Both the position numbers and the translations under genes were made by a program. 32,000 nt of DNA from Minisyncoccota bacterium (GTDB taxonomy: Bacteria; Patescibacteriota; Minisyncoccia; Minisyncoccales; Minisyncoccaceae). Shown here piece by piece: positions 4,349 through 30,100 of this stretch; the stretch's first letter is position 1; every line of letters begins with the position of its first letter. Below the pieces are notes generated by a model. The model ran no database searches and was not told the DNA's origin. It saw nothing but the letters and a program-made list of their open reading frames with translations. The stretch is taken from assembly GCA_041651335.1 (NCBI GenBank), contig JBAZJL010000002.1, forward strand, positions 1 through 32,000. The letters run 5' to 3'.

Positions 4349-5620
4349 TTAACAGCCCAATATCTTAAAAATCTTTTCTCTTTTTATTTCATCTGCCAAA
4401 TATGTTTTTGATTCGCTCTTTTCAATTTCTTCTTTCGCTTTTTTTGAATCAGGATATTGCTTGATAATTTGCTCTATTTTCTCGTTTATTTCTTCGGGCA
4501 ATGCTTCTATTTTTTCGTCTTTTTCTATTTGATTAAAAATTAAAAATAACTTTACTCTTTGTTCTGCTATTTTTTTAAATTCGTCTTTTACTTCTTGCTC
4601 GGTTTTTTTTATTTGCTCTAAGTATTGAGTTAAAGGAATTCCCATTTCCGAATTAACTCTGGCTTTTAAGTTTTCAAAAAGAGCATTTTCTTCTCGCGAA
4701 CATAAAGAGGCCGGGACTTCTACTTTTACTTTTTCTGATATTTTTTCCAATACCTCTCCCCTCTTTTTTTCTTGAGCAGCGATTTCTTTTTCTTTAGTTA
4801 TTCCTTTTTTAATGTCATTTTTTAGGCTGCTTATACTGTCAAAATTGCCAATTTGTTTTGCCCATTCATCATTAATTTCGGGCAATTCAACCTTTTTTAC
4901 CTCTTTTATTAACATTTTTACTTCCACTGACTCTTCTTTTTGATCTGCCCCTAAAACGATTTTAGCTTGAAATGTTTTCTCTTCTCCTTTTTTCATATTT
5001 AACAAAGCCTGGTCAATTCCTTTCAGATAATGATTCTTTCCAACAATAAAGCTGTCTTGTTGTAATCCCTTGGGCAGATTTTTTGGGCCTGATAAAAATT
5101 CAAAATTTATTTCTGCTAAATCCCCGTTTTCAATAGCTCCATTTTTAACTGCTATTTTTGATCTTGATTGTCGTAACCATTCAATCGTGTCTTCCACTTC
5201 TTTTTCGCCGACTATGATTGGTTCTTTTTGAGCACAAACCTTGGCCGCAATCTCTCTAATATTAGGCAATTCTATTTTCGGTAAAACTTCTACTTCTAAT
5301 TTAAAAATAAAATCATTATTTCTGGCAATTTTTATTATTTCTACCTCTGGTTGGCTGATTGTATCTATTTTTTCTGATTTTAATATTTTTAACCAAGTAT
5401 CTCTAATAGCATTTTCTGCTGCTTCAGACAAAAGAGCTTCTGATCCAATCTTTTCTTCAATCAATTTTTCCGGGGCTTTCCCCTTCCTAAAACCAGGCAA
5501 TTCCGCATCCTTGCTAAAGTTTTTTAAAGCTTGATCATAAAAATTATTAAATTCTTCAGCTGTTATTTCCGCTTCAATCTTTTTTTTGTTTGAAGAAACG
5601 TCTTTTATTTCGTATTTCAT
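4349..5620 (-). CDS. tig: Trigger factor
   Basis: 423 aa. The N-terminal ribosome-binding region contains GFRKGKAP. The protein is Lys/Glu-rich with the usual length and sits in the classic tig-clpP adjacency. Confidence 0.92.
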   Translation of the reverse strand: MKYEIKDVSSNKKKIEAEITAEEFNNFYDQALKNFSKDAELPGFRKGKAPEKLIEEKIGSEALLSEAAENAIRDTWLKILKSEKIDTISQPEVEIIKIARNNDFIFKLEVEVLPKIELPNIREIAAKVCAQKEPIIVGEKEVEDTIEWLRQSRSKIAVKNGAIENGDLAEINFEFLSGPKNLPKGLQQDSFIVGKNHYLKGIDQALLNMKKGEEKTFQAKIVLGADQKEESVEVKMLIKEVKKVELPEINDEWAKQIGNFDSISSLKNDIKKGITKEKEIAAQEKKRGEVLEKISEKVKVEVPASLCSREENALFENLKARVNSEMGIPLTQYLEQIKKTEQEVKDEFKKIAEQRVKLFLIFNQIEKDEKIEALPEEINEKIEQIIKQYPDSKKAKEEIEKSESKTYLADEIKREKIFKILGC

Positions 5621-5693
5621 CGCTATTTTTAATCTTTTTATCTTATTTTAATCTTTTTTTCATTTGCCCTATATATATAGGTAGCTGAGTTTA

Positions 5694-6959
5694 TTATTCT
5701 TCTGATTCTTCTGCTATTTCGCTCTCGTTAATCTCGCCATCTTCTGACTCTTCAACATCCAAAGAATCTTGATCGCTTTTTACATCCAGTTTCCAGCCAG
5801 TAAGCTTGGCTGCTAAACGAACGTTTTGTCCATCCTTGCCGATTGCTAAAGATAATTGATCTACTGGAACAACTACGATTGCTGTATTCTTGGGCAATGT
5901 TTTTACTTCAATTACTTTTGCTGGAGATAAGGCATTGGTAATATATTTTACAACATCATCAGAATATTCGATAATGTCTATTTTTTCTCCACCAAGCTCG
6001 GAAATCACAGCAGAAACTCTTACCCCGCGCTGACCAACCATGGCTCCGATTGGATCAACTCCTTCTGCTAATGAGGCAACTGCTATTTTTGTCCGATTCC
6101 CAGGCTCTCGAGCAATTGATTTTATTTCTATTTGATTGCTTGATATTTCTGGAACCTCTAATTCAAAAAGTTTAGAAATTAATTTTGGATATATTCGAGA
6201 TAATAAAATAACCGGACCCCTTGGAGTGGTATCAACCCTTAAGATATATAATTTTAAACGTTGCCCTTCTTTATAAAATTCACCCCTAATTTGTTCTTCT
6301 TTTGGTAAAACACCTAAGCTTTTTCCAATATCAAAATAAATATTAGGCCCTTCGATTTTTTGCACAATCCCAGAAACAATCTCCCCTTCTTTTGATTTAT
6401 ATTCTTCGATTACCGCATCTTTTTCTGCTTCTCTTATTTTTTGTAAAATTACTTGTTTGGCGGTTTGAGCAGCAATTCTGCCAAAATCTTCTTTTTGGTC
6501 AACTGGGATTATCTGTTCTTCGCCAACTTTTAATTTTTGAGCCCCTGCTTCTTCAATTAAAATATGCCTTTCTGGATTATATCTTACTCTTCTTTGAACT
6601 TCTGAACTTTGAGGAATTTCTTCAATATTTAATTCTGATTCTGTGGGACGATAGCTATCTTTAATTTCAAAATCAAAAGAATATTTTTCTTCTAATGGTT
6701 GTTCTGTGTCCCCTTCTTTTGGCTCAACTGGTTCGGGAATATAAACAATTGTGTCGTCTACTACTGATTTTGTTCGCCAAAAATCAACCTTTCCTGTTCG
6801 AGGGTCAATTTTTGCTTTTATTATTTGACCTTTTTGACCATATTCTTTTTTATAGGCCGAAGCCAAAGCATGTTCTACTGTTTCTAAAACTTTTTCTTGA
6901 GATAATCCTTTTTCTTCGGCAATCTGCGTAATTGCAGATAAAAATGACTGAAAATCCAT
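5694..6959 (-). CDS. nusA: Transcription termination/antitermination factor NusA
   Basis: 421 aa. The N-terminus is MDFQSFLSAITQIAEEKGLS. The S1 domain contains GEIVSGIVQKIEGPNIYFDIG. The KH domains contain DPIGAMVGQRGVRV and LSLAIGKDGQNVRLAAKLTGWKLDV. It has an acidic tail. Confidence 0.95.
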   Translation of the reverse strand: MDFQSFLSAITQIAEEKGLSQEKVLETVEHALASAYKKEYGQKGQIIKAKIDPRTGKVDFWRTKSVVDDTIVYIPEPVEPKEGDTEQPLEEKYSFDFEIKDSYRPTESELNIEEIPQSSEVQRRVRYNPERHILIEEAGAQKLKVGEEQIIPVDQKEDFGRIAAQTAKQVILQKIREAEKDAVIEEYKSKEGEIVSGIVQKIEGPNIYFDIGKSLGVLPKEEQIRGEFYKEGQRLKLYILRVDTTPRGPVILLSRIYPKLISKLFELEVPEISSNQIEIKSIAREPGNRTKIAVASLAEGVDPIGAMVGQRGVRVSAVISELGGEKIDIIEYSDDVVKYITNALSPAKVIEVKTLPKNTAIVVVPVDQLSLAIGKDGQNVRLAAKLTGWKLDVKSDQDSLDVEESEDGEINESEIAEESEE

Positions 6960-8785: not shown

Positions 8786-8807
8786 CTTTTTATTATTATG
8801 TCCGCAT

Positions 8808-8875
8808 ATTAAATTATGTGGACATAATATAGAAAAATTTTGTCCAGATTTGTCCACAAACAAATTATCTGGACA
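8808..8875. promoter_or_regulatory. Cluster of DnaA-box-like TGTCC(A/G)CA / TGTGGACA motifs (left cluster)
   Basis: TTGTCCACA at 8850-8858 matches TTATCCACA at 8/9 positions. TTGTCCAGA at 8840-8848 and TGTGGACAT at 8817-8825 each match at 7/9. Weaker TGTCCGCA and CTGGACA motifs are also present. Confidence 0.4.
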
Positions 8876-8879
8876 TTCC

Positions 8880-8950
8880 CGGGATGTAATATAAAGGCAT
8901 TATGCAGGCTTCGGGAGTCTGTAATCTGGGTTCAATTCCCAGCATCCCGA
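8880..8950 (+). tRNA. tRNA-Pro (anticodon CGG)
   Basis: Acceptor is CGGGATG/CATCCCG. Anticodon stem is CAGGC/GTCTG with loop TTCGGGA. T arm is CTGGG-TTCAATT-CCCAG. Discriminator is A and no CCA is encoded. Confidence 0.88.
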
Positions 8951-9265
8951 CCCATTATTTCACTGGGAATTGAAGGCGGAGGGCCGACGGGCCCGAGCCC
9001 GGCCTGACCGAAACTTCACCAGAAGTTTACGCGAAGGCAATTCCCAACATCCCGACCCATTATTTCACTGGGAATTGAAGGCGGAGGGCCGACGGGCCCG
9101 AGCCCGGCCTGAGCGAAACTTCACCAGAAGTTTACGCGAAGGCAATTCCCAGCATCCCGACCCATTATTTCACTGGGAATTGAAGGCAAAGGGCCGACGG
9201 GCCCGAGCCCGGCCTGACCGAAACTTCACCAGAAGTTTACGCGAAGGCAATTCCCAGCATCCCGA
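8951..9265 (+). repeat. Three tandem 105-bp units. Each holds a GC-rich three-helix module plus a copy of the last 18 nt of tRNA-Pro.
   Basis: CAATTCCCAGCATCCCGA occurs at 8933 (inside the tRNA), 9038 (one mismatch), 9143 and 9248, giving a period of 105 bp. The modules lie at 8963-9047, 9068-9152 and 9173-9257. Confidence 0.95.
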
Positions 9266-9324
9266 CCATTAGTTTTGTTGAGAATTAAGGGCAAATGGCC
9301 GATTAAGACCAAGTCAAGGCCTAA

Positions 9325-9395
9325 GGATCCGTAATTTAATGGTAAAATACTGCTTTCACACAGCAGCGACATGAGTTCGATTCTCGTCGGATCCA
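9325..9395 (+). tRNA. tRNA-Val (anticodon CAC)
   Basis: Acceptor is GGATCCG/CGGATCC. D stem is ATTT/AAAT. Anticodon stem is CTGCT/AGCAG with loop TTCACAC. T arm is ATGAG-TTCGATT-CTCGT. Discriminator is A and no CCA is encoded. Confidence 0.9.
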
Positions 9396-9461
9396 CATAA
9401 AAACACTAAAATATGCATAAAAATAGCGTTTTTTGTTAAAATTAATGAATTTTTATTAAAA

Positions 9462-9493
9462 AATAGGGATTTTAAAATAAAATCCTATTTTTT
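9462..9493 (+). terminator. AT-rich hairpin plus T-run; likely terminator of the tRNA Ala-Pro-Val cluster
   Basis: AATAGGGATTTTA-AAA-TAAAATCCTATT forms 12 bp with one bulged G and runs into TTTTTT. An A-run upstream means it could act in both directions. Confidence 0.45.
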
Positions 9494-9521
9494 ATATTCA
9501 ATCCAATGTCGCACAATATTA

Positions 9522-10285
9522 ATGTTCCACGTAGAACATATTGATTTTTAGATACCCCTACGTATTTTAGAGACGAATGATTAGCTGTTTCAGACAAAAT
9601 GAAAATATTTTAGAAAACATTTCTCCTAAAAATCATTAATCATTTAAGATGTTGTTTGTTTTATTGTTTAAAAATTAATGATGTTCCACGTGGAACATTC
9701 AATTTTTATGCTCTTAAAACATATGTTTATTGATGATCATGGTTTTGGGACAAAATTACATTTTAAAAAACTTTTGCTTTCCTAAAAATCATTAATCATT
9801 TAAGGTGCTGTTATGTTATTATTCTGTAAAATTACGTGTTCCACGTGGAACATTAATGTTTTTTATAGATTAAAATGCCATATTATTAATCATCTATGTT
9901 TTTAAGGAAAAATGTTTTCTAAAATATTTTCATTTTGTCAAAAATCATTAATCATTTAAAGTGTTATTTGTTTTATTGTCTAAAAATTAATGATGTTCCA
10001 CGTGGAACATTAAACTTATATATACTTAAAACTTACAATCATTGATGATCATGGTTTTGGGACAAAATTACATTTAAAAAAACTTTTGTTTTCCTAAAAA
10101 TCATTAATCATTTAAGGTGCTATTATGTTATTATTCTGTAAAATTACGTGTTCCACGTGGAACATTAATGTTTTTTATAGATTAAAATGCCTTATTATTA
10201 ATCATCTATGTTTTTAAGGAAAAATGCTTTTCAAAATATTTTCATTTTGCCTGAAACAGCTAATCATTCGTCGCTAAAATACGTA
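9522..10285. repeat. AT-rich repeat block with five regularly spaced GTTCCACGTGGAAC palindromes, alternating ~156-bp units (A-B-A-B), bounded by 68-bp inverted repeats
   Basis: Palindromes lie at 9522-9539 (one mismatch), 9681-9698, 9837-9852, 9993-10010 and 10149-10164. The marker AAAAATCATTAATCATTTAA recurs at about 9628, 9783, 9939 and 10095. The inverted repeats at 9559-9626 and 10218-10285 differ at about 6 of 68 positions by my count. Confidence 0.9.
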
Positions 10286-10336
10286 AAAACATAAAATTTT
10301 TAATAAAAAACACTAAATAATCTACTATAGTCTTTA

Positions 10337-10470
10337 TGTGGACATAAAATGTTACTTAAAACAAACATTATGTCCACTAATGTCCACTAAATTTTAATGG
10401 ACAAGGTATGTGGACAATTATGTGGAAAAACAATGATTTATGTGGACAAATCCGGACATATTATTTGGAC
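10337..10470. promoter_or_regulatory. Cluster of DnaA-box-like TGTGGACA / TGTCCAC motifs (right cluster)
   Basis: Three boxes match TTATCCACA at 8/9 on the minus strand: TGTGGACAA at 10409-10417, TGTGGAAAA at 10421-10429 and TGTGGACAA at 10441-10449. TGTGGACAT at 10337-10345 matches 7/9. There are also two TGTCCACTAA motifs at 10371-10390 and weaker GGACA motifs. Confidence 0.4.
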
Positions 10471-10559
10471 ATTCTTATTGTTTAAAATAAAAACAAAAAT
10501 TAAGTGGAAATAAAATATTTTGTAATTTTGTCTAATTAAGATATAATTTTAATAAAAAC

Positions 10560-10961
10560 ATGGCTAATTGTTTTAAGGTTGGAAAAATAGGGGAATTAAT
10601 TGCTGAAAAATATTTACAAAAAAACAACTATCAGATAATAGATAGAAATTTTTATTTAATAAGCAAAACAACGAATAAAAAAATAGGGGAAATAGATTTG
10701 ATTGCGAAAAAAAATAAAACCCATATCTTTGTAGAAGTAAAAGCAACTTGCAAAAAGGGCCTAAAAATACCATTAGAGGGTAAAATAAATAAGAAAAAGA
10801 AGAAAAGAATGATTATTGTAAGCGAGGCCTGGCTTTTAAAAAACAAATTGGGCTTTACCATCCCTTGGCAAATTGATATAATCACTATTGAAATTAATTT
10901 GATGGATAAAAAAGCTAGAGTCAAACATTATCAAAACGCAATTGAAGATATAAAAAAATAA
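10560..10961 (+). CDS. yraN: YraN-family (UPF0102) endonuclease-like protein
   Basis: 133 aa. It contains GELIAEKYL, GEIDLIA and FVEVKA. Its stop overlaps the plsY ATG (TAATG). Confidence 0.75.
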   Translation: MANCFKVGKIGELIAEKYLQKNNYQIIDRNFYLISKTTNKKIGEIDLIAKKNKTHIFVEVKATCKKGLKIPLEGKINKKKKKRMIIVSEAWLLKNKLGFTIPWQIDIITIEINLMDKKARVKHYQNAIEDIKK

Positions 10962-11557
10962 TGGAAAAACAACTAATTTTTATTTTTTTCTTAATCGCTG
11001 GATATCTATTAGGATCAATTCCTTTTGGCTACATTATTTCAAAAACAAAAAATATTGATATTCGTAAAAAGGGGAGTGGAGCCACGGGCGCAACCAATGT
11101 TTCTCGTTTTTTAGGACTAAAATATGCTATTTTAGTAGCAGTTTTAGATATTTTAAAAGCTATTATTCCAATATTTTTTGCTAAGTTTTATTTTCAGCCA
11201 GGAATAGAATTGGCCTTGATTTCCATTGCTCCAGTTTTAGGCCACATTTTTCCGGTTTGGCTTAATTTTAAAGGAGGGAAAGGGGTTTCTGTTATTTTTG
11301 CTTCTATAATTATGGTGATTGGATGGAAATATTCATTAATTATTTTGGCTTTTTGGGTTTTATTTTTATTCATTATTAAGATTATGAGCTTAACAAATAT
11401 TCTTCTTTTCTTAATCCTGCCTTTTCTTTTCTGGTATTTAACTCATTCTTATATATATGTAGGTCTGGGAATTTTTTATGTTTTGATTATCTGGTGGGCT
11501 CATCGAGAAAATATCAAACGATTATTGCAGGGAACTGAGCCAAAAATTATAAAATAA
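10961..11557 (+). CDS. plsY: Glycerol-3-phosphate acyltransferase PlsY (acyl-phosphate dependent), paralog 1
   Basis: 198 aa polytopic membrane protein. It contains LLGSIPFGYIISK, KGSGATGATNV and GHIFPVWLNFKGGKGVS. Confidence 0.9.
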   Translation: MEKQLIFIFFLIAGYLLGSIPFGYIISKTKNIDIRKKGSGATGATNVSRFLGLKYAILVAVLDILKAIIPIFFAKFYFQPGIELALISIAPVLGHIFPVWLNFKGGKGVSVIFASIIMVIGWKYSLIILAFWVLFLFIIKIMSLTNILLFLILPFLFWYLTHSYIYVGLGIFYVLIIWWAHRENIKRLLQGTEPKIIK

Positions 11558-12865: not shown

Positions 12866-14653
12866 ATGGAAACACTTACTTATCAGGAGCTGAAAAAAAT
12901 GTTTGTTTTCTCTGCGGAAAAAGTAGAGAGAGACAAAGAACAAATAAATAAAATAAACGTCTTTCCTGTTCCAGACCAAGACACGGGAAGCAATCTTGCT
13001 GCCACGCTTATTGGAATAAAACAAGCAATTGCGGAAAAAGAATTCAAAGGAATGGAAGACTTTGGAGAAACGGTTTTAGACGCTGCCTTAACTGCAGCCC
13101 AGGGGAATACCGGCATAATTTATACTGGTTTTTTGGCTGGATTTATCCCTGCGCTTGATAATAAAGACCCTCAAGCCAAAGATTTAGGCAATGCTTTTAC
13201 TAAAGGATATGAACGGGCCAAAGATTCTATTCAAAACCCAAAAGAGGGAACCATCTTAGACGTTATCAAGGCTTTTGCCGAAACCTTTAATCAAAGCGCT
13301 CAAAACGAAACTGATATTACCAAGCTATTTTTAGAGGCATTTAAATCTGCCAACACTGCTTTATTGGAAACACCAAATAAAATGGAAATTTTAAAAAAAG
13401 CCGGGGTAGTTGATGCCGGTGGCTTAGGTTTTCTTATCATCCTAGAAACATATCTTGATGTTTTACTAGAGAGGTCAGAGGCTTTTTCTGCTGTTAAACC
13501 AGCAATTCTTCGCGAAGAAGAGTCAGCAACAAAAAAGTTTGTTCAAATCTTGTCCAATCGCTACGAAGTTGTTGCTTTAATGCGCCGAACTGATACCAAA
13601 GAATCGGAAATGAGAAATCAGCTTAAAAATTTGGGAAACTGCCTGGACATTATTCAAATAGGCGATCGAACAAAAATTCATATCCACACCGACGATCCTT
13701 ATGACGTTCGAGATATTATTTCAAAAATGGGAGCAGTGGAAAATCTTAGAATTCAAGATATGGCCATGGAAATAGTGGGCGAAGAATCGATTGTAAAAGA
13801 TGTTTCTATTGGAATTGTAATTGACGAAAGAGCAGGATTAAGCCAAAAAATTATTCAGCACTATGATATTGAAGTTATTCCTTTTCGAATAAGCTGGCCC
13901 GAAGAACAACAATTAGAAGGTGAAAATGTTTGCGAAAAAATAAAACATGCTCAAAAAAAAGGGTTGCACAATCGGCCAAAAATAAATCCAATTTCTCCAG
14001 AATTTTTTATGGAATCATTTAAAAAACAACTGGAAAAATTTGAAAACGTTATTTGCATTGTCAGCAGTAGCAAACTTTCAAATAATTATCTTTCTGCCTT
14101 AAAAGCAAAAAGTATGCTAAGCTGGAATCAGAAAGAAAAGATTTTTATAATCGATTCACGACAAATAAGCGCTGGTCAATCCTTGGCAGTTTTAGAAGCA
14201 ATTGAACTGATTAGAGAGCAAAGAAAAATAAAAGAAGTGGTCGCCAGATTGGAAAAAATAATTCCCCAAATTCATTTTTCTGGAATTTTAGAAAACGATC
14301 GCTGGGAGAAAAAGAAAAAATTACCTTCTTGGTTTCAAAAAGAATCTCAAAAAGAATATCTGCTTATCGAAACAAGAGCTGGCCGAATAATCCCAACCCA
14401 AAAAATCAGATCAGAAGATTTTGCCGGAATCCTTTTTAACAAAATAGAACGTTTCGCCCGCCGAGATTTGCAATCTGGAAAAAAAATACGAGCAGTTATT
14501 GCCCATGCCGACAATCCCGAACAAGCGGAAAAGCTAAAAGCTGGATTAAAAACAACAAAAAAGGCTGATATTTCTTTTATCGGAATAACTGATCCAGTAA
14601 CCAGTATTAATGCCTGCCCTGAAAGTTTATTTGTGGGTTGGATAATAAAGTAA
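12866..14653 (+). CDS. fakA: DAK2-domain fatty acid kinase subunit (FakA/YloV-like) with a C-terminal DegV-paralog domain
   Basis: 595 aa. The N-terminus carries INKINVFPVPDQDTGSNL, the DAK2/YloV signature. The C-terminal ~280 aa start IGIVIDERAGL...IPFRISWPEE and contain AHADNPEQAEKLK, which closely resembles the two downstream DegV proteins. Confidence 0.8.
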   Translation: METLTYQELKKMFVFSAEKVERDKEQINKINVFPVPDQDTGSNLAATLIGIKQAIAEKEFKGMEDFGETVLDAALTAAQGNTGIIYTGFLAGFIPALDNKDPQAKDLGNAFTKGYERAKDSIQNPKEGTILDVIKAFAETFNQSAQNETDITKLFLEAFKSANTALLETPNKMEILKKAGVVDAGGLGFLIILETYLDVLLERSEAFSAVKPAILREEESATKKFVQILSNRYEVVALMRRTDTKESEMRNQLKNLGNCLDIIQIGDRTKIHIHTDDPYDVRDIISKMGAVENLRIQDMAMEIVGEESIVKDVSIGIVIDERAGLSQKIIQHYDIEVIPFRISWPEEQQLEGENVCEKIKHAQKKGLHNRPKINPISPEFFMESFKKQLEKFENVICIVSSSKLSNNYLSALKAKSMLSWNQKEKIFIIDSRQISAGQSLAVLEAIELIREQRKIKEVVARLEKIIPQIHFSGILENDRWEKKKKLPSWFQKESQKEYLLIETRAGRIIPTQKIRSEDFAGILFNKIERFARRDLQSGKKIRAVIAHADNPEQAEKLKAGLKTTKKADISFIGITDPVTSINACPESLFVGWIIK

Positions 14654-14657
14654 TTTT

Positions 14658-15548
14658 ATGCTTATGGAAAACTCTTTAGAAAATAAAAAAAATATTGGAC
14701 TGATTGCCGATGAAATGGGAGACTTGCCCGAAGACATGGTTATGGCCAATGAAGTTTCGATTGTAAAATTTAAAATAGATTATGGAGAATTGGAGTCTTT
14801 TCCTGGAAACGTTTATCAAAAAATAAGAGAGGGGGAAAAAAGGGGATTGCCTTCACTATTAAAAACTTCCCAACCATCAATTAATGATTTTTTAAAAATT
14901 TTTAAAGAAAAGCTTCAAAATTTTGAAAAGGTTATTTGTGTCACTTTTTCTTCAAAAATATCAGGCGCTTATAACTCTGCTATTCAAGCAATTAAATTTT
15001 TACCAGCAACAGACCAAAAAAATATTTATGTTTTAGATTCTCTTCAAGGAAGCGGAGCCGAAGGATTGATTATTTTAAAAGTAGCAGAAATGATTAAAGA
15101 GGCTAAATTAAAATTCGAAGAAATTATTGAAGAAATCCAAAAAAATCTAAATAATTTCCGCTTAGTGGCCACTTATGACAAGCCTAAATGGATTGAAGCA
15201 AGTGGACGCTTGCCAAAATTTCTGCCTCTTGCCTTAAATCAAGCGGAAATTCGTAATATTAAACCTATTTTTACTATTAAAAACGGAAAACTAAGCATTA
15301 TCGGCATTAAAAAAAATATCAATGGATTGGGCCAAGCAATTTTTGAAGAATTCAAAAAACAAACTACCAACATTACCACCAAAATCAAGGTGGCAATCAA
15401 CCACGCCGACAATCCCGAACAAGCAGAAAGATTAAAAGGCTTAATCAAAACTTTACCAAACTGCGAAATTGCTTATGTAAATCTTGCCTGTTTCACTATT
15501 GGATCCCATACTGGTCCTGGAACAATGATTCTTTCCTGGCAACAATAA
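14658..15548 (+). CDS. DegV-family fatty-acid-binding protein (FakB-like) 1
   Basis: 296 aa. It contains TSQPSINDF, FSSKISGAYNSA, HADNPEQAERLK and IGSHTGPGT. Confidence 0.88.
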   Translation: MLMENSLENKKNIGLIADEMGDLPEDMVMANEVSIVKFKIDYGELESFPGNVYQKIREGEKRGLPSLLKTSQPSINDFLKIFKEKLQNFEKVICVTFSSKISGAYNSAIQAIKFLPATDQKNIYVLDSLQGSGAEGLIILKVAEMIKEAKLKFEEIIEEIQKNLNNFRLVATYDKPKWIEASGRLPKFLPLALNQAEIRNIKPIFTIKNGKLSIIGIKKNINGLGQAIFEEFKKQTTNITTKIKVAINHADNPEQAERLKGLIKTLPNCEIAYVNLACFTIGSHTGPGTMILSWQQ

Positions 15549-15579
15549 AATAAATATAATTTTATTAATAAATAAAAAT

Positions 15580-16458
15580 ATGAAAAATACTACCATAATC
15601 ATCGGTGATAGCGCTCCTATGACGCCAGAAATAGTAGAAAAATTCGGATTCAATATAGTTGAATTCAAAATTGATTGGCCAGAAGAAGCTGGAATTTTTG
15701 GAAAAAATCTTTTTGAAAAAATGCGCGAAGCAAAAAGAATGAACGTTAAAACAACGCCCAAAACTTCTCAGCCTTCTATTGGCGCTTTTAAAAAAGCTTA
15801 TGAACAAGCTTTTAAAAAAGCTCCCAATGTTTTGGCAATTACTATTAGTTCTGGAATTTCCGGTACTTATAATTCCGCGATCCAGGCAAAAAAAATGTTT
15901 AGCGCAGAAGAACAAAAAAGAATTTTTGTAGTCGATTCTTTTAATGCTGATGCTGCCGAAACAATGCTTGCAATCAAAGCTGCAGAAATGGACGAAATTG
16001 GCATGGAAGCTGAAGAAATTGCTAAAAAAATTGAAAGTTTAAAGCCTCAAACAAAATTATTTGGAATGATTGAAAGCCCTTATTGGCTTGAAGCCGGAGG
16101 CAGACTAAGCCATCCAATCGCCGTGCTTTTAGAACAAATGCAAAAAATAGGAATGAGACCGTTATTGTCAATTATTGATGGAGTAATTAAGCCAGCTAAT
16201 TTAAAAATGCAGGCCAAGGATACGGCCAATGCTTTATTTAAACAAATCGAGGAGCTTGTTAAAGAGCCGTTAGCCCAAGGAAAAAAAATAAGCATCGGAA
16301 TCTCTCATTCCGACACTCTATTCGAAGCAGAAAAATTAAAAGATTTAATTATTAAAAACTTTCCAGAAATAAAAATAGAATTTTTAACCACTATGGGTCC
16401 AGCCATTGGATCGCATACTGGTCCAGGAACTTTAATTTGTTGTTTTGTTGAAGATTAA
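15580..16458 (+). CDS. DegV-family fatty-acid-binding protein (FakB-like) 2
   Basis: 292 aa. It contains TSQPSIGAF, ISSGISGTYNSA and IGSHTGPGT. Confidence 0.88.
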   Translation: MKNTTIIIGDSAPMTPEIVEKFGFNIVEFKIDWPEEAGIFGKNLFEKMREAKRMNVKTTPKTSQPSIGAFKKAYEQAFKKAPNVLAITISSGISGTYNSAIQAKKMFSAEEQKRIFVVDSFNADAAETMLAIKAAEMDEIGMEAEEIAKKIESLKPQTKLFGMIESPYWLEAGGRLSHPIAVLLEQMQKIGMRPLLSIIDGVIKPANLKMQAKDTANALFKQIEELVKEPLAQGKKISIGISHSDTLFEAEKLKDLIIKNFPEIKIEFLTTMGPAIGSHTGPGTLICCFVED

Positions 16459-16475
16459 TAATATTATTTAAAAAT

Positions 16476-17198
16476 ATGGCCTTATTTCCAATTTTGTTAA
16501 TTATTGCTATTTTCTCTTATCTTCTTGGCTCTATTCCTTTTGCACTTGTTTTCAACAAATTAATTTTTAAACAAGATCCTCGTCAAACTGGATCAAAAAA
16601 TTTAGGAGCTTTAAATACTTTAAGAATTAGCACAGAAAAAAAAGGAAAAATAATTGGAGCCCTGTCTTTTTTAATTGTATTTCTCTTGGATGCAGGTAAA
16701 GGGGTAATTGCTGTTTTTTTCGCTCAAAAATTAGCCTTAGCCACAATTACTAATCCTCTTTTACTTGGCCCGGAAGGAACTTCTGTTATAATTTTAGTTG
16801 CTTCGATGGTTGCTGCTTTACTTTCAGTTGTTGGCCATAATTACTCGCTTTATCTTAAATTCAAAGGCGGTCGAGGAGCGGCAACCTTGTTTGGTATTAC
16901 TTTATTTTTAAATTGCCAACTTGCTTGGCTTTGGGCTGGTATCGTTCTTTTAGTAATAATTATTGGAGAAATTTTAGCTGGCCATAAATTTAATAAAAAA
17001 TTAATTCCCCAGGCTATAAATAATCAAATTTTGGGACGTTTGATTGGAGAAATCCTAGGCTTAGGATTAATTTATTTTCTTAATCCTTATATTTTTGCTA
17101 TTGTTTGTTTGCCCTTATTGCCAGTGCTTTTAGCCCATTCTGATCGCCTAGAAGAACAAATGAAAAAAATTAAAGCAAAAAATTACTTAGCAAAATAA
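16476..17198 (+). CDS. PlsY-family acyltransferase, paralog 2
   Basis: 240 aa. It contains LLGSIPFALVF, GSKNLGALNTLR and GHNYSLYLKFKGGRGAAT. Confidence 0.75.
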   Translation: MALFPILLIIAIFSYLLGSIPFALVFNKLIFKQDPRQTGSKNLGALNTLRISTEKKGKIIGALSFLIVFLLDAGKGVIAVFFAQKLALATITNPLLLGPEGTSVIILVASMVAALLSVVGHNYSLYLKFKGGRGAATLFGITLFLNCQLAWLWAGIVLLVIIIGEILAGHKFNKKLIPQAINNQILGRLIGEILGLGLIYFLNPYIFAIVCLPLLPVLLAHSDRLEEQMKKIKAKNYLAK

Positions 17199-17199
17199 A

Positions 17200-17865
17200 A
17201 TGCCTCAACTTTTATTATATTTTTGTTTTTTTGTTTTTTCTTATCTTTTGGGATCAATTCCTTTTAGTTATTTGATTACAAAAATTTTTACTAAAAAAAA
17301 TGTTTTTGAATTAGGTTGGAAAAAAAGTTCGGCCAGCAATGTTATTAAAAACATTGGAAAATTACCAGGAATTTTAGCTTTTTTATTGGATGTTGGTAAG
17401 GGATTTTTAGTGGTTTATTTGGCTCAACAATTGCAATTTTCTTCTTTTCTTCAAGCCTTGGCTGGAATTTGCGCAATCTTAGGACACAATTGGTCTATTT
17501 TTGTAAAAGGCAAAGGAGGAAGGGGTTTGGCCACTTTAGTTGGCGCTGTAATCGGGTTTTCTCCTGTTTTTCTTTTTATTATTGTTATTCCTTGTATTAT
17601 TTTTACTTTTATTTGGACTGCTTCAATCGGCACGATTTTATCTTTAGTGTTTGGAGTTTTTTTGGGTTTTGCTTTTGCAAAGTGGCAAGCGCCTGGATTT
17701 TTAATTTTGATTTCTCTTCTGCCAATTTTTATTAAACGACTAAGTCCGATTAAAGAAATAAATAACATTACTGATCAAGGGGAAAAAAGAGCATTAATCG
17801 AAAACAGACTTTTGTTTGATCAAGACACGGTTCCCAGCTTTCGCATTAAATTTTTTAAAAAATAG
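17200..17865 (+). CDS. PlsY-family acyltransferase, paralog 3 (divergent N-terminal motif)
   Basis: 221 aa. It contains LLGSIPFSYLITK and GHNWSIFVKGKGGRGLAT. The GSGN.GATN motif is degraded to KKSSASNVIKN. Confidence 0.65.
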   Translation: MPQLLLYFCFFVFSYLLGSIPFSYLITKIFTKKNVFELGWKKSSASNVIKNIGKLPGILAFLLDVGKGFLVVYLAQQLQFSSFLQALAGICAILGHNWSIFVKGKGGRGLATLVGAVIGFSPVFLFIIVIPCIIFTFIWTASIGTILSLVFGVFLGFAFAKWQAPGFLILISLLPIFIKRLSPIKEINNITDQGEKRALIENRLLFDQDTVPSFRIKFFKK

Positions 17866-17907
17866 TTTTGACTTTTTTGTTAATAAGTTGTATTTTTTAT
17901 ATCTAAT

Positions 17908-17979
17908 GCCCCCGTAGCTCAACGGATAGAGTTCTGGTCTTCGGAACCAGCGGTGTGGGTTCGAATCCTGCCGGGGGCA
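17908..17979 (+). tRNA. tRNA-Arg (anticodon TCG)
   Basis: Acceptor is GCCCCCG/CGGGGGC. D arm is GCTC-AACGGATA-GAGT. Anticodon stem is CTGGT/ACCAG with loop CTTCGGA. T arm is GTGGG-TTCGAAT-CCTGC, with two wobble pairs. Discriminator is A and no CCA is encoded. Confidence 0.86.
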
Positions 17980-17980
17980 C

Positions 17981-18021
17981 CCTAATACAAAAGATGGCTC
18001 CATGCCATCTTTTGTATTAGG
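17981..18021 (+). other. Perfect 18-bp hairpin immediately 3' of tRNA-Arg
   Basis: CCTAATACAAAAGATGGC-TCCAT-GCCATCTTTTGTATTAGG. Its 3' arm overlaps the 5' arm of the GC-rich module that follows. Confidence 0.7.
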
Positions 18022-18215
18022 ATTGATTCGAAGCCGGAGGGCCGACGGACCCGAGGCAGGCCCTGAGGAATTTTCAGTAGAAAATTACCGAAGGGCGAAT
18101 CCTGCCGAGATATTTTTGAAGGCGAATCCTGCCGAGATATTTTTGAAGGCGAATCCTGCCGAGATATTTTTGAAGGCGAATCCTGCCGAGATATTTTTGA
18201 AGGCGAATCCTGCCA
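18019..18215 (+). repeat. One GC-rich three-helix module (18019-18103) followed by five tandem 27-bp units that re-copy the module 3' edge and the tRNA-Arg T-arm 3' strand
   Basis: GGCGAATCCTGCCGAGATATTTTTGAA starts at 18094, 18121, 18148, 18175 and 18202 (the last copy is decayed). CGAATCCTGCCG is identical to tRNA-Arg positions 17962-17973. Confidence 0.93.
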
Positions 18216-18359
18216 AAATTCTTTTTAAAAGCAAATTTTTTAGCTTAATAATTCAAATACAAAGCCATAACAACGGCAAACAAAAAATAAACAAGTTTTA
18301 CTAAAATTTTACCCAAAAACAAAAAAATAGTGGATTTAGGCTTTAAGTAGTCTTTTCTC

Positions 18360-18414: not shown

Positions 18415-18852
18415 ATGATTTTTAATAAAAAATTCAAATATTTTTCTTTTCTTAGCCTTCTTTTTTTGGTTTTTGTTTCTTTTCCAATTATTGCTAATGC
18501 TGCCACTTGTCCAACCTGCGACTCAATTGTTTGTTGTGGAAACGAAGGCCAGCCTGCTTGTACTTTAGCGGATTTGTTTTGTTTAATCCAAAGCATAATA
18601 AATTTCATCTTATGGCAAGTAGTTCCGCCATTAATAGTGATTTGGTTTGCTTATGCTGGTTTTTTAATGCTTACCTCTGGAGGAGATCCTGGAAAAACAA
18701 AACAAGCCAAAGACATGGTTACCGCAGCTTTTATTGGAATAATTCTTGTTTATTCTGCTTGGATGTTAGTTTACTGGTTTATCAGCTTTATCGGAGGGCC
18801 AACTCAAAGTAATTGGCTATTGCAGTTTTTTACTACTCAAACCACTCCTTAA
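18415..18852 (+). CDS. Small secreted two-TM pilin-like protein (TrbC/VirB2-like, the pilin type seen in Patescibacteria) with a Cys-rich N-terminus
   Basis: 145 aa. The signal peptide ends IIANA. Six Cys lie in ATCPTCDSIVCCGNEGQPACTLADLFC. Next come TM1, then LTSGGDPGKTKQAKDMVTAAFIGIILVYS, then TM2. The same core is found in the N-termini of the ORFs at 28789-30096 and 30101-31480. Confidence 0.7.
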   Translation: MIFNKKFKYFSFLSLLFLVFVSFPIIANAATCPTCDSIVCCGNEGQPACTLADLFCLIQSIINFILWQVVPPLIVIWFAYAGFLMLTSGGDPGKTKQAKDMVTAAFIGIILVYSAWMLVYWFISFIGGPTQSNWLLQFFTTQTTP

Positions 18853-18884: not shown

Positions 18885-18957
18885 GCCCCGTTAGCTCAGT
18901 TGGTAGAGCAGGAAGCTCTTAACTTCAAGGTCGTGGGTTCGAATCCCTCACGGGGCA
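18885..18957 (+). tRNA. tRNA-Lys (anticodon CTT)
   Basis: Acceptor is GCCCCGT/ACGGGGC. D arm is GCTC-AGTTGGTA-GAGC. The anticodon loop is CTCTTAA. T arm is GTGGG-TTCGAAT-CCCTC, with one T:T mismatch. Discriminator is A and no CCA is encoded. Confidence 0.86.
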
Positions 18958-19411
18958 CAAACGAACACATGACAGGATAGAAAATATTGATTAATTTAAA
19001 ACGCCGATTAACGAAAGAGGGATTCGAAGCCGGAGGGCCGACGGGCCCGAGGCAGGCCTAAGCGAAACTTCACCAGAAGTTTACGCGAAGGCGAAACCTC
19101 ACGGGGCACAAACGAACACATGACAGTATAGAAAATATTGATTAATTTAAAACGCTGATTAACGAAAGAGGGATTCGAAGCCGGAGGGCCGACGGGCCCG
19201 AGGCAGGCCTGAGCGCAATTTCACCAGAAATTGACGCGAGGGCGAAGCCTCACGGGGCACAAACGAACACATGACAGTATAGAAAATATTGATTAATTTA
19301 AAACGCTGATTAACGAAAGAGGGATTCGAAGCCGGAGGGCCGACGGGCCCGAGGCAGGCCTGAGCGCAATTTCACCAGAAATTGACGCGAGGGCGAAGCC
19401 TCACGGGGCAC
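18958..19411 (+). repeat. Three tandem ~151-bp units. Each has a 60-nt AT-rich spacer, a GC-rich three-helix module and a copy of the tRNA-Lys 3' end.
   Basis: CCTCACGGGGCAC occurs at 18945 (in the tRNA), 19097, 19248 and 19399. The modules lie at 19017-19100, 19168-19251 and 19319-19402. Units 2 and 3 look identical. Unit 1 differs by paired substitutions in a hairpin. Confidence 0.95.
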
Positions 19412-19572
19412 ACAAAAGACCACGACAAAGAACAAGATTGATAGATAAAAAATTAAACAAGGAAGAAAGGAAAAAGTATTTTTTAAAAATTAACAATTAA
19501 ATATCGAAGAGACACCTGTTTTGGTTAAAAAACTAAAACAAGGCGCATAATAAAAAGTAAAAAAATAAAAAA

Positions 19573-27947: not shown

Positions 27948-28811
27948 ATGTCAAGCAATTTTTCCACTGAAAAAACGTTCTTAAATAAGGCCTTTTCTGG
28001 TCCAATTTTAGCTAAAAAATCACTTGGCCAGAATTTTTTACAAGACAAAAATATTATTAATAAAATAATCGCCTCAGCTGGAATCACCAAAAATGATAAT
28101 ATTCTGGAAATTGGGCCAGGCCAAGGGGCTTTAACTTTTTTGTTGGCTTATCATGCAAATAAAGTAATTGCTATTGAAAAAGATGATAATTTAAGCCAAT
28201 TATTAAAAAAAACGATCCAAGATTTAAAAATTAATAATATCGAAGTTTTCAATTCTGATATTATCAAAGAATTAAAACAGGGGAGAGAATCAGAAGCAAT
28301 TAAAAAATTAGGCCGGCATTATCGGGTTATTGCCAATATCCCTTATTATCTTACTGGGCTTTTAATCAGGCTTCTTTTAGAGTCCACTCCTCAGCCAGAA
28401 AACATTACTTTAATGGTCCAAAAAGAAGTGGCACAAAGAATTGTTGAAGCTCCACCAAAAATGAGTCTACTTTCTGTGGCAGTTCAATATTATGCTAATC
28501 CAAAAGTCTTATTTTACGTCTCCAAAACCTGCTTTTGGCCACAGCCCAAAATAGACAGCGCAATCATCAATTTAGAAACTAAAAAATCCCATACTTTAGA
28601 GGCTCAGCTTTTTTTCAAAATTATTAAAGCTGGGTTTTCTTGCCCGCGAAAACAATTATTAAATAACCTATCTTCGGGTTTAAAAATAAGCAAAGAAAAA
28701 TTAAAAAACCGCTTTTTGGAAAACGGTTTTAATCCTTTGCGCCGAGCTGAATCGCTATCAGTAGAAGAATGGGAAAATTTATTAAAAATTATTTACCCGG
28801 CAAAATCGTAA
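27948..28811 (+). CDS. rsmA: 16S rRNA (adenine1518/1519-N6)-dimethyltransferase RsmA/KsgA
   Basis: 287 aa. It contains LGQNFLQD, the SAM motif ILEIGPGQGALT and ANIPYY. Confidence 0.93.
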   Translation: MSSNFSTEKTFLNKAFSGPILAKKSLGQNFLQDKNIINKIIASAGITKNDNILEIGPGQGALTFLLAYHANKVIAIEKDDNLSQLLKKTIQDLKINNIEVFNSDIIKELKQGRESEAIKKLGRHYRVIANIPYYLTGLLIRLLLESTPQPENITLMVQKEVAQRIVEAPPKMSLLSVAVQYYANPKVLFYVSKTCFWPQPKIDSAIINLETKKSHTLEAQLFFKIIKAGFSCPRKQLLNNLSSGLKISKEKLKNRFLENGFNPLRRAESLSVEEWENLLKIIYPAKS

Positions 28812-30096
28812 AATATAAAGGTTTTGTATTTTTTCTATCCTCTATATTATAAACCTTTCCATAGGTAATAGAATTAATACAATTACTTAATCCTTGTTTT
28901 CTAAATAATTGGCAATTCCCATCTTTGTCTTTTAGTAATAAAATAGTTCCTTCACTTATTTTCGCTGACAAAATAGTGTCTCCATCTTGGGGCATTGTTT
29001 CGCAAACTTCAAATTTAAATTCTTTTTGATATTCTGGAACAACGCAATAATTTGGCTCAATAAATGATTTTGTTGAATCATCCCAAATAGAATCTTTTGA
29101 TTCACAATTTGTGCCATTATAAAGCACAACCTCGGAAAGGGGAGTGGCTGGGTCAATTTTTAAAATATAAATAGAAGAAACTTGGCCGATTCCAGAAAAT
29201 TCATCGCTCTCATTAACTCGGACGCTATTTTCTTCGGAATTGTTCGGACTAACTTCGTTTATATTTGATAAATCATTCATTACCCAAGAGCACTTTCCAG
29301 TATAATTATCACCAGAAAAAAGCACGGCCCCATACTTAACAAATCCTTGTTCTGATGGTTGAACTATTTTGATTGATGCGGTTTTTTTATCAAACCCATT
29401 ATTGCCTAAAGCTGGCTGACTATTTAATAAATATAAAGGCGATTTTCTATTATCAAGTTGATAATCAGGGGCATTATAAAGATAAACCCCTGGCCTTTGC
29501 CAATCAAAAGAAATCGAACTGCTTTTGGCAATAAAAATATTGCTTCCGTTCATCACTTCTTGAGGAGTTCCGGAAAAATCTTTTTGCGGGAAAACAAATA
29601 TTCTTGGCAATTCTGATTCGCTGGAAAGCCATTTTATACTAGCTGTATTTTGAGGAACTTCGGTCATATCTCCAGCAATATTCTGTTCTTGCCCATTTTC
29701 GTATTGTAAAATTATTCCTCCGGAATATTGCCCTGGATTCAAGCTTTCTAAGGTATTTTTATTAATTCCGGAATTAATCGTGTTTAAAATCATTATTGAG
29801 CCGAATAAAACAATAAGCCCAACAAAAGATCTTGTTATTTCTCTTTTTGCTTTTTCTATTTTCCCGATTTCTCCCTTGGAAAGAAAATAGGAGATAGCTC
29901 CAAAAATAAGAACAAATGAGGCTGCTACCATTCCAAAAAATAAAGCAAAATTAAAAAAATAAACAAAATAATTAGTAAACGTAGGATTAGCAGGTAAAGA
30001 CACTCCGCCAATTGAAGGATAAGTAATTTCCATTGCCCAAGCATTATTGCTATAAAACAGTCCCAAAATAAATAAAAATAAATTGTTTTTTTCCAT
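28789..30096 (-). CDS. Secreted protein with a pilin-like two-TM N-terminal module and a Cys-containing beta-rich C-terminal domain (paralog A)
   Basis: 435 aa. It has a signal peptide and the core FGAISYFLSKGEIGKIEKAKREITRSFVGLIVLFGSIMILNTIN. The C-terminal motifs are VVLYNGTNC and DGNCQLF. Confidence 0.7.
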   Translation of the reverse strand: MEKNNLFLFILGLFYSNNAWAMEITYPSIGGVSLPANPTFTNYFVYFFNFALFFGMVAASFVLIFGAISYFLSKGEIGKIEKAKREITRSFVGLIVLFGSIMILNTINSGINKNTLESLNPGQYSGGIILQYENGQEQNIAGDMTEVPQNTASIKWLSSESELPRIFVFPQKDFSGTPQEVMNGSNIFIAKSSSISFDWQRPGVYLYNAPDYQLDNRKSPLYLLNSQPALGNNGFDKKTASIKIVQPSEQGFVKYGAVLFSGDNYTGKCSWVMNDLSNINEVSPNNSEENSVRVNESDEFSGIGQVSSIYILKIDPATPLSEVVLYNGTNCESKDSIWDDSTKSFIEPNYCVVPEYQKEFKFEVCETMPQDGDTILSAKISEGTILLLKDKDGNCQLFRKQGLSNCINSITYGKVYNIEDRKNTKPLYFTILPGK

Positions 30097-30100
30097 AAAT

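Follow-up and report, generated by a model that had tools for sequence, protein, structure and literature searches.

Direct repeats of a tRNA 3′ end around inserted DNA make up the attL/attR signature, and the T-loop is a known sublocation of integrase crossover. Repeats of this kind lie behind the tRNA-Pro gene in the window analyzed here, i.e. the whole stretch of 32,000 nucleotides at positions 1 to 32,000 (forward strand) of contig JBAZJL010000002.1 (GenBank:GCA_041651335.1) from a Minisyncoccota bacterium, and they raise the question of what was inserted and by what kind of process. Our analysis revealed that the sequence between the repeats, hereafter the module, is a conserved covarying element family, of which the array at tRNA-Pro is one instance and not a one-off att-site scar. 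The host chromosome is AT-rich (about 30% GC, Patescibacteria/Paceibacteria), with genes for NusA, trigger factor, the CCA-adding enzyme, PNPase, PlsY and pilins of a type IV secretion system (T4SS).

Organization of the array behind tRNA-Pro

All features described in the window are on the + strand. The tRNA-Pro(CGG) gene was located at 8880..8950 (ARAGORN / Rfam end 8950/52; Rfam tRNA, 57.4 bits). Tandem Repeats Finder reported a repeat at 8933-9271 with a period of 105, 3.2 copies, 97% matches and 0 indels, the phase of which starts at C56 of the T-loop of tRNA-Pro, equal to position 8933. The 18-mer CAATTCCCAGCATCCCGA, which extends from C56, the third base of the T-loop TTCAATT, to the discriminator A73, was found exactly at 8933, 9143 and 9248 and with 1 mismatch (CCCAAC) at 9038, the chance expectation being 0. 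A preliminary description of this locus had placed the start of the repeat phase at the third position of the T-loop, which agrees with both the Tandem Repeats Finder result and the tRNA calls, and had listed the 18-mer at the same four sites, all of which do carry it, that at 9038 with the one mismatch.

Unit 1 (8951..9055; covariance model match at 8963-9048, 104.3 bits; variant CCCAAC) opens with a 12-nt spacer and the 5′ arm CTGGGAATTG, continues with the module and ends in a copy of tRNA 56-73. It is followed by unit 2 (9056..9160; match at 9068-9153, 104.6 bits; variant TGAGCG) and unit 3 (9161..9265; match at 9173-9258, 100.7 bits), the latter having the variant GGCAAAGGG in common with a decayed fourth copy. 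This fourth copy (9266..9324, found by alignment) has about 67% identity, has decayed towards AT and breaks off within the start of hairpin B (last letters ...GGCCTAA). It directly adjoins tRNA-Val(CAC) (9325..9396; ARAGORN / Rfam), the right boundary of the insertion, and takes the place of a spacer that measures 13-15 nt in relatives. In all, 372 nt separate tRNA-Pro from tRNA-Val, and the whole array lies within a cluster of tRNA-Ala, tRNA-Pro and tRNA-Val in which no terminator was predicted. The three unit differences noted before (GGCGG/GGCAA, TGACCG/TGAGCG and CCCAAC/CCCAGC) were all recovered in the alignment; likewise, each Pro unit does end in a copy of tRNA 56-73, regenerating the tRNA 3′ end, and the copies enclose no protein cargo, the units (105-151 bp over the loci discussed below) being without a gene. 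A feature that the preliminary description did not contain is that the 5′ side of the module is the reverse complement of tRNA positions 56-65.

In three independent assemblies of the same organism (L029-L031) the contigs end inside the T arm of tRNA-Pro, and a fourth contig (L032, GenBank:GCA_030154545.1) enters the array from the tRNA-Val side, containing at least 1.5 units with 3 base differences relative to the window. Because this independent contig has its own differences, the array is real and polymorphic, three being the number of units as assembled.

Further copies in the window

The core of the module, GGAGGGCCGACGGGCCCGAG, occurred 7 times in the window (3 behind tRNA-Pro, 1 behind tRNA-Arg and 3 behind tRNA-Lys) versus 0 expected. 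The second host, tRNA-Arg(TCG) (17907..17982; ARAGORN), is separated from a single module (18021..18106; covariance model, 85.1 bits) by a terminator-like perfect hairpin (17981..18021; repeat search, with an 18-bp stem in the fold), and the 3′ arm of this module is a copy of tRNA positions 56-67 only. Repeat searches also detected, at 18094..18214, a perfect array of 4.5 module-less units of 27 bp, each in the order GAAGG, tRNA-Arg 56-67 and spacer. The third host, tRNA-Lys(CTT) (18885..18957; ARAGORN / Rfam), is followed by three 151-bp units (18958..19410; covariance model matches at 19017-19102, 19168-19253 and 19319-19404) in each of which a 59-nt spacer and the 5′ arm GAGGGATTCG precede the module and a copy of tRNA-Lys 56-73 with slight divergence follows it. 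Sequence comparison suggested that the region next to them (19411..19480) is a degenerate remnant of a further spacer plus 5′ arm, and this region is absent from the empty orthologous site in contig L003.

Open reading frames were noticed at 8970-9272 and 18002-18304, which are incidental to the repeats. A protein-coding repeat was rejected on the periods, which are 105 for Pro, 151 for Lys and 147 for a tRNA-Val array in contig L005, 151 not being a multiple of 3. A type III toxin-antitoxin RNA array (ToxI-like) was rejected as well, the arrays preceding tRNA-Val, a pilin ORF or rpsO-pnp and not a toxin endoribonuclease.

Predicted fold and covariation

The element is about 86 nt long with a core of about 65 nt, and it is predicted to fold into a three-way junction formed by 1) P1, the closing stem, in which the 5′ arm is the reverse complement of tRNA 56-65 and the 3′ arm is the direct tRNA copy from C56, 2) hairpin A, in which a GGA/GA internal loop joins a 3-bp stem to a 5-bp stem capped by a GACG loop, and 3) hairpin B, which starts with a GCC/GGC stem and continues through a UGA/GAA internal loop, 2-3 bp and a bulged A to a 7-bp stem capped by an ANNA tetraloop. 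Both hairpins carry GA-type internal loops. In an alignment of 51 distinct copies, which was fitted to the covariance model and therefore somewhat favours the structure, 94.4% of cells were paired versus at most 60% when the partners were slid, 24 of the 28 pairs had changed on both sides, and the covariation score was 0.439 versus 0.134 after shuffling, none of 500 shuffles scoring as high. RNAalifold run on a MAFFT alignment, which is independent of the model-fitted one, found 17 of 28 pairs compensated.

The best conserved positions are the unpaired ones, with junction and loop bases at 86-100%: the junction GAA at 93-98%, the GACG loop at 90-95%, the inter-hairpin G at 100%, the A..CA of loop B at 100, 86 and 100%, and the bulged A at 90%. 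G.U cells (25) and A.C cells (20) were about equally rare, and the folded form under selection may be either RNA or single-stranded DNA, of either strand. It was also noticed that some variants of hairpin A are an inverted duplication of the adjacent GGCGGAGGG, and this indicates that fold-back template switching acts on modules.

Distribution of the module and its linkage to tRNA genes

A covariance model built from 14 copies of the module matched Paceibacteria contigs totalling 280 kb at 80 sites, of which 51 are distinct, and pattern scans detected the core in contigs of Patescibacteria/Paceibacterota only, at 7 genome loci and 21 metagenome loci. Going by the covariance model matches, at least 16 tRNA species host a module downstream, namely Pro-CGG, Arg-TCG, Arg-GCG, Lys-CTT, Ala-GGC, Thr-TGT, Val-TAC, Leu-TAG, Leu-TAA, Leu-GAG, Ser-TGA, Ser-GCT, His-GTG, Cys, Ile-TAT and Ile-GAT. 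Nearly all modules are located 10-60 nt 3′ of the tRNA, and all tRNA-linked cases but one are on the strand of the tRNA. A module was present no more than 150 nt downstream and on the same strand at 26 of the 55 distinct tRNA loci of the fetched contigs, a proportion that is enriched for the module since these contigs were collected via the module search. Other tRNAs and other samples likewise have arrays of 2-3 units. By local GC skew, 36 of 51 modules are on the G-rich strand, a weak bias among non-independent copies that is confounded with gene orientation.

One subfamily of the module, characterized by an extra hairpin, is found with no tRNA nearby, within REP-like hairpins (ATGTTTGGGGG...CCCCAAACAT). 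P1 is constant only in this non-tRNA subfamily (ATGTTTGGGGG/CCCCAAACAT); elsewhere it varies with the host tRNA. The preliminary description had pictured a structured module inside an att-type array; the module is indeed present, but it turned out to be the element itself, occurring behind at least 16 tRNA species.

Boundaries, arms and derivative copies

Whatever the host tRNA, the tRNA copy begins invariably at C56, directly after GAAGG. Its length varies from 8 to 46 nt, the right end lying between -11 and +30 relative to the tRNA 3′ end, and the universal part is positions 56-65 only, i.e. the 3′ strand of P1. The earlier statement that each unit restores the full tRNA 3′ end therefore applies to tRNA-Pro and some other loci, but across the family only positions 56-65 are always kept. 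On the other side, the 5′ arm matched the complement of tRNA 56-65 at 136 of 160 positions, compared with 66 of 160 for a direct copy of the 5′ half of the T arm, and six cases matched at 10 of 10, among them Pro, Thr, Leu-TAG, Ser-GCT, one Lys and one Ala copy. The left flank of the module always ends in ...GAA, a regularity that is confounded with the complement of the T-loop.

Since the tRNA copies include trailer sequence and never CCA, mature tRNA was not their source. Three simple models, namely plain insertion into the T-loop with a 5-nt duplication, a direct copy of the T arm, and reverse transcription of a mature tRNA, are each contradicted, either by the Pro, Ala and Leu arms or by the trailer sequence together with the lack of CCA.

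Single copies usually lie 3′ of the tRNA's own terminator-like hairpin, and arrays typically finish in a truncated or decayed unit, as at 9266-9324 and in the terminal copies of L003, L004 and L005. Module-less units were found in the window (18094-18214) and also in L005 and L010; they resemble the products of deletion between the GAAGG(C) direct repeats on either side of the module. Contig L011 contains a complete pseudo-tRNA-Arg(GCG) with a module in its T-loop in the opposite orientation, followed by an intact copy of the tRNA.

Presence and absence among relatives

Synteny is conserved around the Pro locus, with ClpP, Tig and NusA on one side and the CCA-adding enzyme, tRNAs, UPF0102 and PlsY. 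In the closest relatives (L035 and L038; CCA-adding enzyme 87-88% identical) only 13-15 nt lie between tRNA-Pro and tRNA-Val, and the covariance model gave 0 matches on these empty sites. The same gap in L041, a 74%-identical relative, contains an ORF of 103 aa for a GIY-YIG protein, and neither an integrase nor a further copy of the tRNA-Pro end is present. The preliminary description had considered that an integrase-bearing island at the orthologous position might identify the array as a deleted remnant; such an island was looked for in the related genomes, and no integrase was found at the orthologous loci of L035-L042.

Because three relatives, an outgroup included, show no trace of the tRNA-Pro module, the 372-nt interval is most parsimoniously read, from this sequence comparison, as a gain in the lineage of the window. 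As a counterpoint, precise deletion between the direct tRNA-end repeats could have produced the empty sites secondarily. The orthologous tRNA-Lys site is empty in L003, has 2 units in L010 and 3 in the window; the units of L010 have unrelated spacers and lie within a 46-nt duplication that starts at C56 and extends 27 nt into the trailer on their flanks.

Searches for enzymes and known relatives

Pfam scans of 20 ORFs of the window detected no integrase, reverse transcriptase or transposase domains. With Rfam 15 at gathering thresholds, the whole window yielded tRNAs only, and at E≤10 the region 8850-9330 yielded tRNAs and noise, with no ribozyme family. A pattern scan of viral contigs for the core gave 0 matches, and BLAST against phage and plasmid collections gave none. 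Promoter and terminator scans returned counts not above those of shuffled sequence, and a full-text literature search found no account of a tRNA-flanking structured repeat in CPR.

GIY-YIG nucleases were considered as mobilizers, small ORFs of this type being located 3′ of tRNAs in L041/L042 and L020; none lies beside a module and none is in the window, so that a GIY-YIG nuclease as the mobilizing enzyme is a lead only. Among known structural motifs, a hammerhead was rejected on the alignments, which show CUGA but not CUGAUGA and have GAA(G), 1-2 nt and 0 nt between the helices, and the K-turn and bulge-helix-bulge were rejected by hand on the same kind of evidence, the lengths of the junction strands and the sizes of the bulges not fitting.

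Nature of the element

Taken together, we consider it somewhat more probable than not that the module is a selfish, non-autonomous structured element residing in T-arm-derived hairpins beside tRNA genes, with its enzyme encoded elsewhere and with local amplification by recombination or slippage. According to this model, the element would lodge in a T-arm-derived hairpin 3′ of a tRNA gene, on the strand of the tRNA, and leave the tRNA intact. At the Pro locus, 1) an element would have been gained between tRNA-Pro and tRNA-Val in the lineage of the window, 2) an old copy would have decayed and become truncated, and 3) unequal recombination between the repeated tRNA 3′ segments, or slippage of replication between them, would have produced the three near-identical units. 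A folded single strand, either RNA or ssDNA, may be recognized by a trans-acting enzyme; selection combined with hairpin-templated (quasipalindrome) template switching may create or preserve the perfect 5′ arm; and spread between tRNAs may take place via the near-universal sequence of the T-loop. That template switching also creates the tRNA-specific 5′ arm at each new tRNA is something we infer only. The truncated, decayed, module-less, antisense and non-tRNA-hairpin copies were counted as signs of selfish behaviour. Against this, neither a mobilizing enzyme nor an intermediate of transposition came to light, and conserved unpaired bases and covarying stems are also expected of an RNA that benefits its host.

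That the module is instead an active RNA device, be it a guide-bearing ribozyme or RNA-guided insertion at the 55/56 junction or a three-way-junction switch with a decoy copy controlling tRNA maturation, seems rather unlikely. Of the specific forms this might take, the somewhat likelier one, itself unlikely, is a cis-acting, tRNA-linked RNA switch or processing element that is co-transcribed with the tRNA and tunes its maturation or stability. The 5′ arm would pair either with positions 54-65 of the genuine tRNA, so that the T arm unfolds, or with the downstream copy, so that P1 forms; which pairing prevails would be set by the junction, working as an aptamer or as a platform for protein binding. 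The strand and the 10-60 nt spacing of the tRNA-linked modules are as such a switch would have them, and so are the position of the Pro array inside a tRNA cluster without a predicted terminator and the combination of conserved junction and loop bases with covarying stems, which is riboswitch-aptamer-like. Furthermore, complementarity of the 5′ arm extends over 12 nt in the genuine tRNA (54-65) but only 10 nt in the copy, and predicted global folds prefer the alternative register (Pro, -73.4 versus -67.0 kcal/mol; Lys, -85.7 versus -69.7 kcal/mol), although such a preference is a trivial outcome of the repeated sequence, and the prediction takes account neither of the tertiary structure of the tRNA nor of folding during transcription. 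The preferred fold, which is plausible on physical grounds, is tRNA-like: the downstream copy supplies the 3′ side of both the T stem and the acceptor stem, and the intervening sequence becomes a large T-loop insertion. However, the module is patchy among close relatives, in which the orthologous tRNA-Pro and tRNA-Lys work without it, and its copy number ranges from 0 to 3; many copies lie beyond a strong terminator-like hairpin, antisense and non-tRNA copies exist, and truncated or decayed ones are common.

Less probable still is a self-inserting small ribozyme or guide-bearing mobile RNA, in which the 5′ arm would serve as a guide pairing with positions 56-65, and the module end (...GAAGG) would be joined to C56 by RNA-catalysed or RNA-guided strand transfer, like a reversed splicing step, the product reaching DNA via reverse transcription or an RNA-guided recombinase. 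The GAAGG|C56 junction is invariant across tRNAs, the guide-like complementarity is particular to each tRNA, and, much as in catalytic cores, conservation is concentrated in junctions and loops, two of the internal loops being of the tandem G.A type; the order of 5′ arm, module and 56-73 in a unit may also be read as the topology of an "intron plus 3′ exon" intermediate. On the other hand, no Rfam ribozyme matched even at E≤10, the core is only about 65 nt, the scanned ORFs of the window include no reverse transcriptase, and the presence of trailer without CCA points away from mature tRNA as the source. The antisense copy and the copies in REP-like hairpins argue for a DNA target, and there is no excess of G.U pairs over A.C.

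That islands or phages carrying an integrase entered an att site of tRNA-Pro one after another and later lost all their cargo is very improbable, and this reading is largely refuted. The likeness to att-site duplications pointed out in the preliminary description is genuine, in that a direct repeat of the tRNA 3′ segment bounds the insert as attL and attR classically do and the phase starts at a known crossover sublocation. A fixed attP for tRNA-Pro is excluded as the explanation because the module follows at least 16 tRNA species, with arms matching each; besides, the units of 105-151 bp have no gene, no integrase is encoded by the window ORFs tested or at the orthologous loci, the viral, phage and plasmid collections gave no match, and the length of the tRNA copy is variable. 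Finally, an assembly expansion or collapse, which the breaks of short-read assemblies of the same organism at the tRNA-Pro array might suggest, is hardly credible in view of the units differing at 3 positions, the variants of the independent contig L032 and the arrays of 2-3 units at other tRNAs and in other samples.

Comparison with known systems

As in the tRNA elements of tyrosine integrases that use the T-loop sublocation, the module is an insert 3′ of an intact tRNA followed by a direct tRNA copy starting in the T-loop, and its tandem arrays resemble accretion at an att site. It differs from them in having neither integrase nor cargo, in units of only about 100-150 bp, in at least 16 host tRNAs, in the variable length of the copy, and in the stem that the direct copy makes with an inverted copy of tRNA 56-65.

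Yeast mitochondrial GC clusters (PMC4478555) and the double-hairpin or repetitive hairpin-forming elements of fungal and sponge mitochondria (PMC2800124) are likewise short, GC-rich, folded, non-coding intergenic repeats of AT-rich genomes, with presence/absence polymorphism, merging and shuffling of units and no transposition enzyme assigned. In GC42 of yeast mitochondria, substitutions concentrate in the loops while the stems are conserved (PMC4478555), whereas the module conserves its loops and junctions and its stems covary. In addition, the organelle elements have short fixed target duplications (AG), and none is tied to the T-loop or has a closing stem derived from the target.

With REP/BIME and the palindrome-associated elements derived from IS200/IS605, which belong with HUH (Y1) transposases, the module shares imperfect bulged hairpins with conserved loops, for which recognition would take place in single-stranded DNA, strand-specific features, nesting near other hairpins and a non-autonomous nature; it differs in being a three-way junction whose closing stem varies with the host tRNA. 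Those of the compared families whose defining features could be tested are not matched by the module. A MITE was also rejected: there are no family-constant terminal inverted repeats, P1 varying with the host tRNA, and no target-site duplication of fixed length, the duplicated tRNA segment being fixed at its left end and variable at its right, so that it measures 8-46 nt.

Group I and II introns and self-cleaving ribozymes resemble the module in a guide-like complementary arm beside an invariant junction and in conserved junction bases with covarying helices; the module differs in a far smaller core (about 65 nt), in having no Rfam match and in lying outside the tRNA. Variants of Neurospora mitochondrial retroplasmids capture tRNA sequence and integrate at a tRNA gene by homologous recombination; these plasmids are kilobase-sized and encode a reverse transcriptase, and the tRNAs captured carry CCA. 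They are similar to the module as small elements that gain tRNA 3′ sequence and sit by a tRNA gene between duplicated tRNA sequence, but the module has no reverse transcriptase and no CCA, and its copy includes trailer. We found no prior description of a structured element that has a closing helix derived from the host tRNA and is anchored at C56 of the T-loop.

Implications for Patescibacteria

CPR/Patescibacteria have tiny genomes with few recognized mobile elements or non-coding RNAs. In these bacteria, a compact and structurally conserved element occupies a large share of tRNA 3′ flanks, building its closing helix from host T-arm sequence and leaving the tRNA intact. The module explains the recurrent assembly breaks at tRNA genes in metagenome-assembled Paceibacteria genomes, and the covariance model is a ready means for its annotation. 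If the element is mobile, it would represent a new way to target the most conserved hairpin in biology without an encoded enzyme, and also a route to duplicated tRNA 3′ ends, a possible step to split or intron-bearing tRNA genes. Should it prove to be a functional RNA, no earlier cis element would be known that is tRNA-specific and acts on folding of the T arm; and an active RNA device, in either form, would constitute a new class of RNA mechanism specific to CPR bacteria.

Predicted alternative fold and variants of the module

Folding of the tRNA together with unit 1, at 8880-9055 for tRNA-Pro and 18885-19108 for tRNA-Lys, predicted a minimum-energy structure in which the 3′ strands of the acceptor and T-stem were supplied by the downstream tRNA copy, while the 5′ arm paired with positions 54-65 of the genuine tRNA. 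The predicted product, a tRNA whose T-loop contains a giant insertion, was 6-16 kcal/mol lower in energy than the modular fold.

Among the other contigs compared, L011 carried a complete pseudo-tRNA-Arg(GCG) (5520-5800) with its T-loop split by an antisense module of the extra-hairpin subfamily (CTTGATTG...CAATCAAG), and an intact tRNA-Arg(GCG) copy was located 39 nt past the interrupted gene. Copies of a non-tRNA subfamily were found in L002 (60-330 and 1450-1750 (-)), L008 (300-620 (-)) and L025 (5380-5700 (-)); their closing stem (ATGTTTGGGGG / CTCCCAAACAT) was invariant, they had an extra hairpin, and they were adjoined by intact REP-like hairpins, e.g. ATGTTTAGGGG-TAACA-CCCCTAAACAT. In the copies at L028 5061-5159 and L010 2600-2831, hairpin A was replaced by a hairpin (CCTCCGCC-AATT/AGCT-GGCGGAGG) formed by inverted duplication of the adjacent GGCGGAGGG. 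These duplications are evidence of fold-back template switching.

Behind tRNA-Arg, a perfect tandem array of GGCGAATCCTGCCGAGATATTTTTGAA (27 bp x4.5, 18094-18214) had units consisting, in order, of GAAGG, tRNA-Arg positions 56-67 and an 8-nt spacer. The array appears to be a derivative of the element that lacks the module and was amplified separately.

Genomic surroundings of the arrays

The repeat region with flanking word clusters covered 8795-8880 and 9420-10560 of the window. Past tRNA-Val lay a 1.1-kb, AT-rich, non-coding stretch of 156/312-bp tandem repeats, each containing the palindrome ATGTTCCACGTGGAACAT, and the DnaA-box-like words TGTGGACA and TGTCCACA were clustered on its flanks. 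The word TTATCCACA, at no more than 1 mismatch, occurred 12 times vs. 7.9 expected, which is not significant by itself. The stretch possibly represents an oriC or iteron region.

Three PlsY paralogues (10961-11557, 16476-17198 and 17200-17865), together with a FakA-like gene and two further DegV genes (12866-16458), were all situated inside 7 kb, a local expansion of lipid-handling genes that is unusual for a small genome. The tRNA-Arg and tRNA-Lys arrays bracketed a gene for a 145-aa T4SS pilin (18415-18852, +), and two large ORFs of 435 and 459 aa (28789-31480, -) had weak T4SS-pilin domain matches.

tRNA 3′ flanks and contig breaks

Small GIY-YIG nuclease ORFs of about 80-103 aa, each preceded by a GC-rich hairpin leader, were located directly 3′ of tRNA-Pro and tRNA-Ser(CGA) in related genomes (L041/L042 5380-5691; L020 10482-10721, -). 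Several small elements seem to use tRNA 3′ flanks as landing sites, and the GIY-YIG nuclease is a possible candidate for a trans-acting factor.

The window's organism is also represented by three independent short-read assemblies (L029, L030 and L031), all of which had contig ends inside the T arm of tRNA-Pro (8928-8948). Therefore, in these metagenome-assembled genomes the element systematically causes contigs to break at tRNA genes.
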